Positions 8,819 to 59,392 of a DNA stretch of 64,000 nt are shown in pieces; the stretch's first letter is position 1; every line of letters begins with the position of its first letter. The position numbers were made by a program, and so were the translations under genes. The DNA is from Escherichia phage BME3: the sequence record PP239276.1. One strand, 5' to 3'. Under the pieces are notes generated by a model, which worked only from the letters and a program-made list of their open reading frames with translations, ran no database searches and was not told the origin of the DNA.

Positions 8819-9328
8819 TTGTCAATAAAAACCTTTGTCGCAATTGCGTTACTATCCTTAACTGCTTTTACATTTACACCTGTTGTGGCGCAAGCCGAAG
8901 CTGCAAACGTAAAAACTGCTAAAGTAGTTCACAAGTGTACAAAGCGTGATAGTAAAGAAAATCTATTAGCTTGTGCAATCTATGCAGAAAGTCGTAATCA
9001 AGGAAAGCGCGGTATGTCTGCTGTTGGTAATGTAGTATTGAACAGGGCAAGAGATTCATATTTCCCTGATACTATAAAAGAAGTTTTGTTTCAAAAAGGA
9101 CAATTCTCTTACACGAAGACATTCAACGTTATGGAACACGATAAGTGGAAGGAAGCTAAGGCTATAGCAGAACGTCTACTTTATCTCGAAAACCATTTTC
9201 CAGAATTACGAATTGCATTAGATATTACAAAAGGAGCATTATACTTTAAAAAATCTACAATAAAAGCACACTGGGAAAAAGATATGGTTCTAGTGTACCG
9301 CTACAAAGAACATCAATTCTATCGCTAA
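8819..9328 (+). CDS. SleB-like cell wall hydrolase with signal peptide (candidate secreted endolysin)
   Basis: TTG start after AGGAGG RBS; signal-like AIALLSLTAFTFTPVVAQA; motif CAIYAESRNQGKRGMSAVGNVVLNR with QFSY resembles SleB/Hydrolase_2 family. Confidence 0.55.
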   Translation: MSIKTFVAIALLSLTAFTFTPVVAQAEAANVKTAKVVHKCTKRDSKENLLACAIYAESRNQGKRGMSAVGNVVLNRARDSYFPDTIKEVLFQKGQFSYTKTFNVMEHDKWKEAKAIAERLLYLENHFPELRIALDITKGALYFKKSTIKAHWEKDMVLVYRYKEHQFYR

Positions 9329-9338
9329 GGAGATATAG

Positions 9339-9617
9339 ATGAAAGATGGCGTTATCGTTGCAAGTTATCTTGTTATTGGTCTTACAGAAGAGGATGTACA
9401 TTACATTAGGAAACATTTAGAACAGTTTGCAATGATGTTCATCGAAGACGAAGACAATGTGGATGTTTATTCAATTGAAATGATCAATGATAACGTCTAT
9501 CCTTGTATAGCTTTACGAGTCGATGAAGATGTTTGGGAACGTTTTTCACGTAGTCACGATAATGTTGAATGTTCTATGGTTATGTCACAAAACAACATAC
9601 TGGGAGTGTTACACTGA
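9339..9617 (+). CDS. hypothetical protein
   Basis: 92 aa, TAAGGAGATATAG RBS. Confidence 0.45.
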   Translation: MKDGVIVASYLVIGLTEEDVHYIRKHLEQFAMMFIEDEDNVDVYSIEMINDNVYPCIALRVDEDVWERFSRSHDNVECSMVMSQNNILGVLH

Positions 9618-9847
9618 TGGCTGATGTTATTGAAGTTAACTTTAAAACAAAAAAGAAAGTTGATAAGTATACAATCTTAAAAAATATTTGCGTTGTGTGC
9701 TTTAATTCTGTAATATATGACTCACGTAAGGGCGAAAATGAAAATGAACCTTACATCCAGATTTCTAAAGGTAAAGGGCAGTGTATCTGCAAAAACTGTG
9801 CTGTAGCAATTAAGGAGGTTGTAGATGAAAACCATTGGGATCAATGA
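9617..9847 (+). CDS. hypothetical zinc-ribbon protein
   Basis: ATG overlapping upstream stop (TGATG); two CxxC pairs (CVVC ... CICKNC). Confidence 0.4.
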   Translation: MADVIEVNFKTKKKVDKYTILKNICVVCFNSVIYDSRKGENENEPYIQISKGKGQCICKNCAVAIKEVVDENHWDQ

Positions 9848-10019
9848 TACTGGTGAAGTTGTAAAATCTTGGGATGATCTTAGTGGTATCCCTACAGATA
9901 AACTGATTAAACTGCGTGATGTTTGTCGTGATCATCTTAATGAAACATATAAAGAGTATATGGAAGCACGAGATCACAGTTTAGCTATCCAAATGGAACT
10001 CGCAAAACGTAATCAATAG
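9825..10019 (+). CDS. hypothetical protein
   Basis: 64 aa, AAGGAGG RBS. Confidence 0.4.
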   Translation: MKTIGINDTGEVVKSWDDLSGIPTDKLIKLRDVCRDHLNETYKEYMEARDHSLAIQMELAKRNQ

Positions 10020-10076
10020 GTAAAACCATTTGGACTTTTTAGTCTAAAAATGCTAAAGTAATAATACGGAGGGAGT

Positions 10077-56600: not shown

Positions 56601-56629
56601 CTTTAACATATTTTAAATAGTTTTGTCAA
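56601..56629 (-). promoter_or_regulatory. minus-strand promoter (TTGACAA - N16 - TTAAAG)
   Basis: reverse complement reads TTGACAAAACTATTTAAAATATGTTAAAG, same pattern as 61583-61611 and 62894-62922. Confidence 0.4.
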
Positions 56630-56632
56630 GAT

Positions 56633-58717
56633 TTATCTTCCTCTGATACTATATGGAGAAGATAAAGAGTTTCTTGATCTTCCACCCATCTTACCGTACC
56701 CTGTTAATGCATTTGTTGCAGAAGGTATTGCTACTGCTTTAAACATCTGTTCTTTTGACAAAGTATTAAAGCAAGATGCAGCAGCATCTGGAATATCATC
56801 TTTTAATGTTGCCGTAGATCTTTCTCCATTAAATGACTCCATCTCTTTATAGAAATGATCAAGAGTTTCTTTGTTAGGGAAAGATTCTTCTACAATATAA
56901 ACAAAACCATTTTGACAAGCACTACTAAATGGCATAAAGCGTTGTAATTTTTTCTTGTTACCAGGCATAGCATCTGGTTTAACAACAAACCCTTCAGCAA
57001 TTAGTTTTTTAGCTGATTCTGTATATTCAATCAAACCAGCACCAGAAGGATCTTTTGGCAATACAACTGTAACTTCATCTCCATCAATCTTACATTGGTT
57101 TAGAATTAAATTATCTCGATCACCTGGTAGTCTTCTGAATCTACCAAAAATTTTACTACCTTCATCGTGAGCATCATAATCATAATCACCAAAAATGTAA
57201 TAATTTCCATCAGAGTCTTTAGCCATTTTAACAGATGTTGTGTAGTCAGGATAACGATAAGATTCTGTTGGAACAGATACTGCTTTATCCCACGCTCGCA
57301 TATATTTAAGATTGTTTGGTAAATCTTTAAACTTGATAACGTGTAACCATTCTCTGTTAAAGAAACTCTCTTCTTGCGCACGAGCAAACCAACAACCATC
57401 TAAAAGCTGTGCTCTCTTAACGGCGGTTTGAGCCTTCAAAGAAGCTAAGTATTTAGGGTTAAGTCTTATTAGTTCAGGGTTATCAAAGATAGTACCACCA
57501 ATGAACACAAATGTTTGTGGTTCAATAACCACTGTTTCACCTGTGTTTGGGTTTTGCATAAAACAGTTTTCAGGATACTTTTCTTTCAACTCTTCTGCTG
57601 TTTCAGCAAATACTGGTTCATCTTGCACAATAAGAAAGTATAGCTGTTTGCCACACATATCTTCTCGTGGATAACCCGCTTCATCTAAATACGGAAGTAC
57701 CCATTTCAACACCCAACTATCTGCATCAGGGTTACAAGTACACAGCATAAAAGATGTTTCTGATTCAGAACGCATACGCCCTAACAGATACAGCATTTCA
57801 TATTGTGTAAAATGTGTAAGTTCGTCAAACCCTACCATCGAATACTGTGTACCTTGATGGTTAGTTTCAGCAGTTACGTTATCATTTTCAAGATGGTCAA
57901 ATTTAAGTGTGCCACCTTTTGTGGCTCTGAACTCCATCTCCATAGCCTGTTCTCTTACGTGAGGCTTTAATGGTAGATAAAGTTTTTTAGCTTCAGTAAA
58001 CAAACCACCAGATTTACGTAAAGCTGTTGTATTTTTACGGAAAAGAATACCACCAAACAGTGGATCTTTATATGCGTATTTAAGTGCTTTTAGAAGTAGC
58101 AGACGGCTTTTGCCGCTATTCCCAGTAACGAAGATGTGATCGCCACGTCTAAACACGACATAACTGCTTGGAGTTTCAAAGCAATATTTCTTATCATCAC
58201 TTGTCATTACCTCATGAATTTTTAGATATGTGCTAGGTTTACCTTGAATGTTAAACGGAACACGTTTACCAAAAGGATTTTCAATATATCCTCGTAATGG
58301 GTGTCCTGCTTGCTGTAGTGCAATAAGATCCCCAACAAGAATTTCAAAATGTTTTTTGGATTTTTTCTTCTTGTAGAAAACAAAGCGATGTTCCATACTT
58401 AATTCTTGGAAGACACCTACTCCGTTTGTGATACAATACAGATTATCTTTAGCATCATATTCTACAAAAGATGGTGTAACTAATTCAAGACGTTTATTTC
58501 TTGGATTGTATTGATAAATATCCTCACCATCATATTCACTTATTTGTTTCCAACCGTCTCTTGTTAAGTATTCTGTTTCTGCTGAAACACAACCTGCCGC
58601 ACCACCATAAATCATTACTTCAGGCATAAGATCCATAGCTAGTGTTTGTTTGCCAGGTTGGGCTTTAACTTCAATATCTACATTTTCAAAAGATTGTTTG
58701 ACAGGTTTCCTTGCCAC
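56633..58717 (-). CDS. terminase large subunit
   Basis: 694 aa, Walker A-like VTGNSGKSR near N-terminus, acidic nuclease-like C-terminal half. Confidence 0.75.
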   Translation of the reverse strand: MARKPVKQSFENVDIEVKAQPGKQTLAMDLMPEVMIYGGAAGCVSAETEYLTRDGWKQISEYDGEDIYQYNPRNKRLELVTPSFVEYDAKDNLYCITNGVGVFQELSMEHRFVFYKKKKSKKHFEILVGDLIALQQAGHPLRGYIENPFGKRVPFNIQGKPSTYLKIHEVMTSDDKKYCFETPSSYVVFRRGDHIFVTGNSGKSRLLLLKALKYAYKDPLFGGILFRKNTTALRKSGGLFTEAKKLYLPLKPHVREQAMEMEFRATKGGTLKFDHLENDNVTAETNHQGTQYSMVGFDELTHFTQYEMLYLLGRMRSESETSFMLCTCNPDADSWVLKWVLPYLDEAGYPREDMCGKQLYFLIVQDEPVFAETAEELKEKYPENCFMQNPNTGETVVIEPQTFVFIGGTIFDNPELIRLNPKYLASLKAQTAVKRAQLLDGCWFARAQEESFFNREWLHVIKFKDLPNNLKYMRAWDKAVSVPTESYRYPDYTTSVKMAKDSDGNYYIFGDYDYDAHDEGSKIFGRFRRLPGDRDNLILNQCKIDGDEVTVVLPKDPSGAGLIEYTESAKKLIAEGFVVKPDAMPGNKKKLQRFMPFSSACQNGFVYIVEESFPNKETLDHFYKEMESFNGERSTATLKDDIPDAAASCFNTLSKEQMFKAVAIPSATNALTGYGKMGGRSRNSLSSPYSIRGR

Positions 58718-58725
58718 ATCTCCTC

Positions 58726-59055
58726 CTAATTAGAAATTATTCCTTCACTTTGTAATGTTTTAATATAGTTTTGTAAACTGATAAGTTTTATCCTATCTTT
58801 TTCCCACAAAGCGTTGTTTAAAGTTTGATTATCAACTACCTCTGATCTTGTAACTCCTTTCTTTATTTGATTAGGGGTATATAAAACAGGGGTAGATGGT
58901 TTTTCCATACTGACAGAATCAGGTGCTTTTATTTGTTGTGTTGCTACAGCTTTACACTGCTCAATCAGTAGAGGCTGGGAAGCTGTTGTTGATGATGCGC
59001 AACCCGTCATCATTAGGGCTAAAACAAGACATAGCGCCAGAAGATGTTTTCGCAT
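58726..59055 (-). CDS. o-spanin (Rz1-like outer-membrane lipoprotein)
   Basis: MRKHLLALCLVLALMMTGC lipobox; start lies inside the upstream i-spanin gene in another frame. Confidence 0.55.
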   Translation of the reverse strand: MRKHLLALCLVLALMMTGCASSTTASQPLLIEQCKAVATQQIKAPDSVSMEKPSTPVLYTPNQIKKGVTRSEVVDNQTLNNALWEKDRIKLISLQNYIKTLQSEGIISN

Positions 59056-59392
59056 AATCTATTCTCTCTTGTGTTATGTTATTACTCTTCTTATCCAGTT
59101 GTGTAAGAAGATCATTTCTTTCTTTCGTTAATGAATGAATTTTTTCATTCAATTTAGATCTTTCTGAATCTGCTTTTGCTTGTAAGATATCGAATTGCTG
59201 TTTTGCTTTAATTTGGTTTTGTTGTAATATTTGTTCTTGTTTAGCAACACCTGCATTGTAGCCTTGTGCATACACGTCATCGTGTAATTTGTTTAAACCA
59301 ACATACAAACCACCAAACAGTGCTATAATAAGAACAAAATACCTAACCCATTTATTCTTCAGTAGGTTTATTAACATAGTCAGTATCATCAT
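58961..59392 (-). CDS. i-spanin (Rz-like)
   Basis: N-terminal transmembrane segment then coiled-coil (QEQILQQNQIKAKQQFDILQAKAD). Confidence 0.55.
   Translation of the reverse strand: MMILTMLINLLKNKWVRYFVLIIALFGGLYVGLNKLHDDVYAQGYNAGVAKQEQILQQNQIKAKQQFDILQAKADSERSKLNEKIHSLTKERNDLLTQLDKKSNNITQERIDYAKTSSGAMSCFSPNDDGLRIINNSFPASTD

Follow-up and report, generated by a model that had tools for sequence, protein, structure and literature searches.

The 64,000-nucleotide stretch of Escherichia phage BME3 analysed here (sequence record PP239276.1; hereafter the window, taken at its full length) carries two loci with recognisable lysis functions. An overlapping pair of Rz/Rz1-type spanin genes lies at 58726-59392 on the minus strand, immediately upstream of the terminase gene, and a gene for a SleB-like hydrolase with a cleavable-looking signal peptide lies at 8819-9328 on the plus strand, ~50 kb away. 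An earlier note, made from the letters of the window, had described both loci in these terms and had concluded that the lysis genes are split; on each of these counts our analysis agrees with it. The note had also presented the SleB-like protein as the only recognisable muralytic enzyme and, by implication, as the endolysin of the phage. It is this second proposal that we reconsider below, in the light of the relatives of the phage and of what lies past the end of the window.

By megablast, the window is ~99% identical to phi92-like coliphages (Justusliebigvirus), the best matches including phi92, KMB37, Nernie and BASEL phages. The terminase-spanin region and the SleB-like region, searched separately, each matched 55 phage records at at least 95% identity. 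Six collinear blocks of 95.5-99.0% identity to phage Nernie (PP925835) cover most of the window: positions 1-21780 correspond to Nernie 116900-138667 and positions 35410-60859 to Nernie 3955-29403, and the end of the window falls at Nernie 32254. Judged by these matches, the window is 64 kb of a ~146-kb phi92-like virulent myovirus (Justusliebigvirus, Stephanstirmvirinae). Its plus strand carries replication and accessory genes from position 1 to ~21.7 kb, and its minus strand carries the tail, head and packaging genes along with 16 tRNA genes. The SleB-like gene belongs to the replication arm, apart from the late genes and from any lysis cassette.

The SleB-like protein matches the Pfam family Hydrolase_2 (PF07486) with an E value of 2.9e-20 and a score of 73.2 bits (cutoff 27), over profile positions 2-100 of 100. 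When a profile of 16 homologues was compared with the PDB, it retrieved only SleB catalytic domains (4F55 at 1.5e-10 and 4FET at 9.5e-10), and the segment AIYAESR was aligned to AVYGESR of both structures, that is, to the motif Y-x-E-[SA]-R. The glutamate of this motif, E57, which from the SleB structure papers we take to be the catalytic residue, is unchanged across the 16 homologues, as are C40 and C52, and it is found again in the proteins of rV5, T5 and PAK_P3. Full-length SleB is not matched: the score with the TIGR02869 equivalog model, whose cutoff is 236.5 bits, was 52 bits, the match covering model positions 81-199 only, and the Pfam search gave no PG_binding_1 match in the protein, the N-terminal wall-binding domain of true SleB being absent.

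The N-terminus of the protein, MSIKTFVAIALLSLTAFTFTPVVAQA/EA (a slash marks the predicted cleavage here and in the sites below), has a lysine at position 4, a hydrophobic h-region, proline at -6 and alanine at -3 and -1. All 16 homologues, at 60-79% identity, keep the h-region, the proline at -6 and small residues at -3 and -1, with a c-region of variable sequence, so that the cleavable appearance reported earlier extends to the whole set. Signal-like N-termini are also present in the rV5 and T5 homologues, whose hydrophobic stretches end in VVA/A and SQA/S, respectively. The homologue from PAK_P3 has a longer N-terminal hydrophobic region and no obvious cleavage site. With these features, export of the SleB-like protein by the Sec pathway is very probable.

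The two spanin genes overlap by 95 nucleotides in different frames, and their identification is borne out by matches to phrog_4297 and phrog_1267 (Table 1). The i-spanin has an N-terminal transmembrane domain (residues 15-33), a periplasmic helical region and Cys123, and is 29% identical to the syntenic spanin of PVP-SE1. The o-spanin, 27% identical to that of PVP-SE1, starts with a lipoprotein signal that we read by eye as MRKHLLALCLVLALMMTG/C19-A-S; its lipobox, MMTG/C19, has methionine at -3, which is not the commonest choice, and is followed by alanine, not aspartate, at +2. With Cys34 of the o-spanin and Cys123 of the i-spanin, both partners have a periplasmic cysteine. The o-spanin stop codon comes 9 nucleotides ahead of the terminase gene, which starts with GTG and has its own AGGAGG. 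A terminator scan called nothing between the spanins and terminase, and the nearest minus-strand terminator lies upstream, at 60126-60102, so the packaging genes and the spanin pair are probably cotranscribed. In the census of Kongari et al. 2018 (PMC6139136), phi92 and phAPEC8 are listed as the spanin family '(phi92, phAPEC8)'. The o-spanin gene was left out when phi92 was first annotated, and several records truncate it at the 5' end (288 nucleotides in Nernie, 183 in some gene calls); the lipoprotein signal is consequently lost from those records.

Table 1. Features of the two lysis loci and small membrane proteins of the window considered as holin candidates
Feature	Position	Strand	Remarks
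Two-segment protein, 68 residues	943..1149	+	two transmembrane domains; inside Ter-type cluster; phrog_16065 (function unknown)
G+C-rich hairpin GAGGGGG-ATAGT-CCCCCTC	8737..8755	+	between upstream gene and SleB-like gene; no T-tract; read directly
Sigma-70-like promoter candidate TTGCAA-17-TACAAT	8759..8787	+	9/12 matches; upstream TG present (extended -10)
Ribosome-binding site AGGAGG of SleB-like gene	8808..8813	+	invariant; 5 nucleotides before TTG start
SleB-like open reading frame	8819-9328	+	169 residues; equivalent to phi92 gp170
Sec-type signal peptide (predicted)	8819..8896	+	26 codons from TTG; predicted cleavage AQA/EA; from sequence and homologue conservation
Mature SleB-type (Hydrolase_2) peptidoglycan hydrolase domain	8897..9328	+	Pfam PF07486 match; C40, C52, E57 invariant
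Membrane protein, 113 residues (phi92 gp149)	29011..29352	-	N-terminal transmembrane domain, long coiled coil; weak holin/antiholin/spanin-like candidate
Membrane protein, 81 residues (phi92 gp144)	33039..33284	-	two hydrophobic segments, charged C-terminus, late operon; holin candidate by shape only
Large terminase gene	56633..58717	-	Pfam Terminase_6N; immediately downstream of spanins
o-spanin, 109 residues	58726..59055	-	phrog_1267, E=2e-20
i-spanin, 143 residues (phi92 gp118)	58961..59392	-	phrog_4297 Rz-like spanin, E=1.9e-40, residues 2-140
One-segment protein, 36 residues	63726..63836	-	one transmembrane domain; beside tRNA cluster

Past the end of the window, the relatives of the phage encode another wall hydrolase. 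Nernie 58828-59328, directly upstream of phoH, encodes a 166-residue protein annotated 'hypothetical' and equivalent to phi92 gp061, which matches Pfam Phage_lysozyme at 4.1e-12 and aligns end to end with T4 lysozyme at ~1e-52. Its residues E15, D24 and T30 correspond to the catalytic E11, D20 and T26 of T4 lysozyme, and it has no export signal. The gene is present in 55 records at at least 97% identity, the same number as match the two loci of the window, and also in Phapecoctavirus, at ~73% nucleotide identity. Its syntenic place is ~26.6 kb past the right end of the window; no T4-type lysozyme homologue was found inside the window by tblastn, nor any second muralytic domain among the precomputed Pfam matches, which cover nearly all window genes. 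The description of the SleB-like protein as the sole recognisable muralytic enzyme therefore holds within the 64-kb window and is not borne out for the phage as a whole, and it came about because the window ends before the expected lysozyme locus. Almost certainly, to judge from these relatives, the SleB-like protein is not the only wall hydrolase of the genome, and the implied assignment as the endolysin of the phage is not supported, given a canonical endolysin elsewhere in the genome in 55 of 55 close relatives. The first reading is partly supported: what it observed holds for the window, and the inference at its centre arose from the point at which the window stops.

Such coexistence extends well beyond this genus. 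SleB-like homologues occur in 1,217 phage records (tblastn). The rV5 homologue has a signal peptide and both cysteines, and the canonical endolysin of that phage is of the lambda type (1AM7, 8.8e-57). PVP-SE1 encodes the SleB-like gp243 in addition to a GH19 endolysin with a PG_binding_1 domain, and the endolysin gene of PVP-SE1 that has been used experimentally is directly upstream of phoH. In T5, the sleb gene, whose product has a signal-like N-terminus, is flanked by annotated early promoters, and T5-like phages have an M15 peptidase endolysin with an adjacent holin (PMC11180984; PMC3326045). By these comparisons the SleB-like gene is kept beside four unrelated types of canonical endolysin, namely T4 type, lambda type, GH19 and M15 peptidase. 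It lies in every case outside late modules and appears to behave as an accessory gene, with neighbours that vary from the Ter cluster here to MoxR/rIIA in rV5 and small open reading frames in T5. Two other roles were considered and rejected: a functional tie to the Ter cluster, given the different neighbours in rV5 and T5, and a role as a virion-associated lysin, given the signal peptide and the location outside the structural module.

The region upstream of the SleB-like gene has the hairpin, the promoter candidate and the ribosome-binding site listed in Table 1. The -35 element, the TG, the -10 element (as TAnAnT), the hairpin with its stem, the ribosome-binding site and the TTG start are all retained between two genera, Justusliebigvirus and Phapecoctavirus, and the spacer has diverged. 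The hairpin was not called by the terminator scan. The extended -10 promoter that the note had assigned to this gene is confirmed as a promoter-like site and as a conserved one, but the number of similar sites in the region, given below, does not set it apart from chance.

No membrane protein gene flanks either locus, which agrees with the earlier observation that no holin is found next to them. Small membrane open reading frames were identified by hydropathy scans of the window and of Nernie and then searched against Pfam, PHROGs and NCBIfam. No holin family match was obtained for any small membrane protein of either sequence, the searches brought up nothing homologous to the T4 holin T among them, and the Nernie annotation has no 'holin' label. 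Neither rV5 ORF129 nor several membrane proteins of PVP-SE1 gave a significant tblastn match in the window or in Nernie. By shape, the best candidates are the late-operon membrane proteins of the tail module, gp144 and gp149, which we propose as candidates on their sequence features. According to the phi92 record both have counterparts in PVP-SE1, and gp144 has one in rV5 as well. The protein gp144, which the note had listed as a holin candidate, has a holin-like shape; it matches no holin family, and several records call it 'structural protein'. For gp149, the match to the Rz-like spanin family phrog_739 is weak (E=8.8e-4); its gene is in the tail-fibre module, between the genes for the tail-fibre chaperone and a tailspike, and the tail-fibre module of PVP-SE1 also has membrane-protein genes. 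The family searches gave nothing in support of the two other proteins put forward as holin candidates: that at 943-1149 has no Pfam or NCBIfam match, and that at 63726-63836 matches no holin family in Pfam, PHROGs or NCBIfam.

Two further candidates were discarded. The Nernie protein named 'hol-like chemotaxis', which lies outside the window, has weak coiled-coil-type Pfam matches only and no transmembrane domain in the hydropathy scan. The apparent window counterpart of phi92 gp113, a 'putative rIII', is a 43-residue open reading frame that overlaps a tRNA gene and is probably spurious (the pair was not aligned).

Public annotations disagree on which of the two hydrolases is the endolysin. 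The phi92 record (2012) names gp061 'putative lysozyme', and the curated record of the BASEL phage EmilieFrey calls the T4-type gene 'endolysin' and the SleB-like gene 'hypothetical'. For the T4-type gene, the top PHROG is named 'baseplate hub subunit and tail lysozyme', and many records give this name, 'baseplate hub' or 'hypothetical'. A Phapecoctavirus has been stated to have only one endolysin, a Hydrolase_2 protein (PMC10282059); a naming swap driven by PHROG matches probably explains this statement. Elsewhere, which enzyme such phages primarily use is given as unknown (PMC11180984). A literature search found no published test of the role of the SleB-like enzyme.

Our preferred reading, to which we give a probability of about 0.78, is that of ordinary T4-style dispersed lysis, with the SleB-like protein as a second hydrolase and not the principal endolysin. 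A putative holin would permeabilise the inner membrane, the cytoplasmic T4 e-type lysozyme (phi92 gp061, next to phoH) would be released through it, and the two-component spanin, probably made from a late transcription unit together with terminase and head genes, would then disrupt the outer membrane. This order applies established knowledge of T4 and lambda lysis to the genes found. The SleB-like gene, in the early/middle (replication) arm, would be transcribed from its own sigma-70-like promoter and translated from a weak TTG start, probably at a low level; the protein would be exported by Sec and freed of its signal peptide, and a C40-C52 disulfide would probably form in the periplasm. There the enzyme may wait and, once the membrane is de-energised, add to the breakdown of the wall; we infer this to be its most likely role. 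The reading builds on gene identities, export signals, synteny and the canonical lysozyme of all close relatives, and extends from them to the timing of expression, export, signal cleavage, the disulfide and the part played by the SleB-like enzyme.

Several points weigh against this reading. No holin emerged from any family search, which leaves the canonical pathway incomplete on paper. The T4-type lysozyme gene is outside the window, and its presence in this particular genome is deduced from relatives. In RefSeq and PHROG-style annotation it is the SleB-like gene that bears the name 'endolysin', and the T4-type gene is labelled 'baseplate hub subunit and tail lysozyme'. The match of the promoter alone is not above chance, with 9 such sites found in the region where 9.1 were expected. 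The AlphaFold model of the SleB-like protein, made with 16 close homologues, is of low confidence (predicted local distance difference test, pLDDT, of 55.7), too poor for a fold search, so that a sequence profile was compared with the PDB instead. For both hydrolases, finally, activity and requirement are judged from sequence alone.

What the exported enzyme does may nevertheless be read in other ways. Its task in the periplasm could have no part in terminal lysis; examples would be local remodelling of the wall in the early or middle stages of infection, the exclusion of superinfecting phages or an altered turnover of wall fragments. The gene would then be a conserved accessory one and not a lysis gene. 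We regard this as possible, if tentative, and as nearly as plausible as the role of an auxiliary lysin. Retention of the gene in phi92-, rV5-, PVP-SE1- and T5-like phages, in which the canonical endolysin has been swapped, speaks for it, as do the constant location outside late modules (between early promoters in T5, in the replication arm here), the conservation of the weak TTG start, the choice of 'hypothetical' by the BASEL curators and the uncertainty about the primary enzyme expressed in PMC11180984. These arguments are of context and conservation, and the neighbours, which differ between phage groups, give no functional hint; moreover, a pre-positioned auxiliary lysin accounts for the same facts. 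Equally tentative is a generalisation of this idea, by which the exported SleB-type hydrolases kept in these four groups of phages of enterobacteria might form a distinct class of phage genes for periplasmic wall enzymes, made early/middle at a low level for a job other than terminal lysis.

A different question concerns the N-terminus, which could be a signal-anchor-release (SAR) domain: as with P1 Lyz and phage 21 R, the enzyme would then remain anchored in the inner membrane, without activity, until the membrane is depolarised. The hydrophobic stretch FVAIALLSLTAFTFTPVV is rich in alanine, serine and threonine, as this would suggest, and two invariant cysteines lie near the catalytic glutamate, P1 Lyz being under disulfide control; the PAK_P3 homologue, with its longer hydrophobic region and no obvious cleavage site, points the same way. 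Yet the stretch has no glycine and is followed by the conserved proline at -6 and the small residues at -3 and -1, which persist in 16 of 16 homologues despite the variable c-region, and the corresponding stretches of the rV5 and T5 homologues end in AXA-like sites. On balance the sequence favours cleavage, and we consider a SAR domain improbable. Lys44 of phage fOg44 is reportedly a signal-peptide endolysin that is exported without a holin, and the SleB-like protein could by the same route be the true endolysin, sole or principal, with its timing set by a pinholin-like depolariser. Within the window Pfam recognises no other wall hydrolase, and the export signal of this one is conserved in its homologues; the name 'endolysin' given by RefSeq and pharokka, the statement in PMC10282059 and the failure to find a holin that would release a cytoplasmic lysozyme all suit this idea. 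Against it, 55 of 55 close relatives and Phapecoctavirus encode an entire T4 e-type lysozyme, catalytic triad included; homologues of the SleB-like protein are found beside canonical endolysins in rV5, PVP-SE1 and T5-like phages; and the SleB-like gene lies in the replication arm behind a sigma-70-like promoter, away from the late genes. The SleB-like protein is unlikely to be the only endolysin, and holin-free lysis of this kind as a whole is very improbable.

Several known systems bear on the preferred reading of T4-style dispersed lysis. As in T4 (layout in PMC6139136), a large virulent myovirus would have its soluble T4-type lysozyme, its two-component spanin and its holin each at a locus apart from the others; the spanin genes are separate in T4, whereas here they overlap and lie directly upstream of terminase. 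T4, whose lysis genes e, t and pseT.3/pseT.2 are dispersed around its genome, is not known to have an exported SleB-type hydrolase. The counterparts in phi92 and phAPEC8 (Stephanstirmvirinae), gp061, gp118 and gp170, share 97-99% identity and their gene order with those considered here, and nothing of substance differs, the tailspike cassette of the window (33285-35409) being the divergent part. The Vequintavirinae rV5 and PVP-SE1 share the spanin pair directly upstream of terminase and the SleB-like exported hydrolase with both cysteines, and they too encode a canonical endolysin elsewhere and have a holin that is at best guessed at (PMC3606486). Their canonical endolysins are non-orthologous to the T4-type one, being of the lambda type in rV5 and GH19 with PG_binding_1 in PVP-SE1, and neither the window nor Nernie has a counterpart of ORF129, the holin candidate proposed for rV5. 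The authors of the rV5 study already described holin and lysin as separated 'as in phage T4' (2013, PMC3606486).

With Bacillus SleB/CwlJ, the phage protein has the catalytic domain and the glutamate-containing motif in common, and it differs from SleB in being without the N-terminal peptidoglycan-binding domain. SleB needs muramic delta-lactam, which the host wall does not contain, so the specificity of the phage enzyme must differ from that of SleB. Lys44 (Oenococcus phage fOg44), P1 Lyz and phage 21 R offer a parallel in that an N-terminal signal would take a muralytic enzyme to the periplasm without a holin. Each of these three is, as far as is known, the sole endolysin of its phage and is encoded in a lysis cassette; here, in contrast, the lineage also has a canonical lysozyme of the cytoplasm, and the SleB-like gene stands alone in the replication arm. 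The gene thus appears to fall outside the Lys44-like class, in which the exported enzyme is the lysis endolysin, given the coexisting T4-type lysozyme and a neighbourhood that is no lysis cassette.

Public records and papers on phi92, phAPEC8, rV5 and PVP-SE1 already describe these genes, where they lie and how they are dispersed. As it was first stated, the finding is of little importance, since the arrangement is documented for this phage group and resembles that of T4. Of practical use is the recognition that the names of the T4-type lysozyme and the SleB-like 'endolysin' are swapped, which is systematic in this group and has probably already misled at least one paper. The phi92-like phages are widely used in therapy.

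Other features of the window were recorded in passing. The region 100-8059 on the plus strand, immediately before the SleB-like gene, is occupied by a Ter-type stress cluster ('tellurite resistance'), in the order PRTase_3, Macro domain protein, TerC, TelA, vWA-TerF-like protein and TerD. At 2685-3290, also on the plus strand, a Ser/Gly-rich protein of 201 residues has the lipoprotein signal LLVG/C with aspartate at +2, which would keep it in the inner membrane; its matches are only to PHROGs without known function. In the large terminase, TerL, an insertion of ~167 residues (43-209) falls exactly within the Walker A motif, the protein reading IYGGAAG/C...VTGN/SGKS (slashes here bound the insertion) where the PVP-SE1 counterpart reads IIGGAAGSGKS. 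No Pfam intein model matched the insertion, and the Terminase_6N match begins only at residue 201; with cysteine as its first residue, asparagine as its last and serine following, the insertion is mini-intein-like.

The 16 tRNA genes, three of them for tRNA-Met, form a cluster at 60518-63395 on the minus strand, with the spanin/terminase block on one side and the NAPRTase gene on the other. Among them are small open reading frames, some of which overlap tRNA genes and are probably spurious. Just upstream of gp144, the segment 33285-35409 is not found in Nernie; it includes an open reading frame of 552 residues (33639-35297). Since other relatives have different tailspike genes at this place, the segment is, by comparison, a variable receptor-binding (tailspike) cassette.

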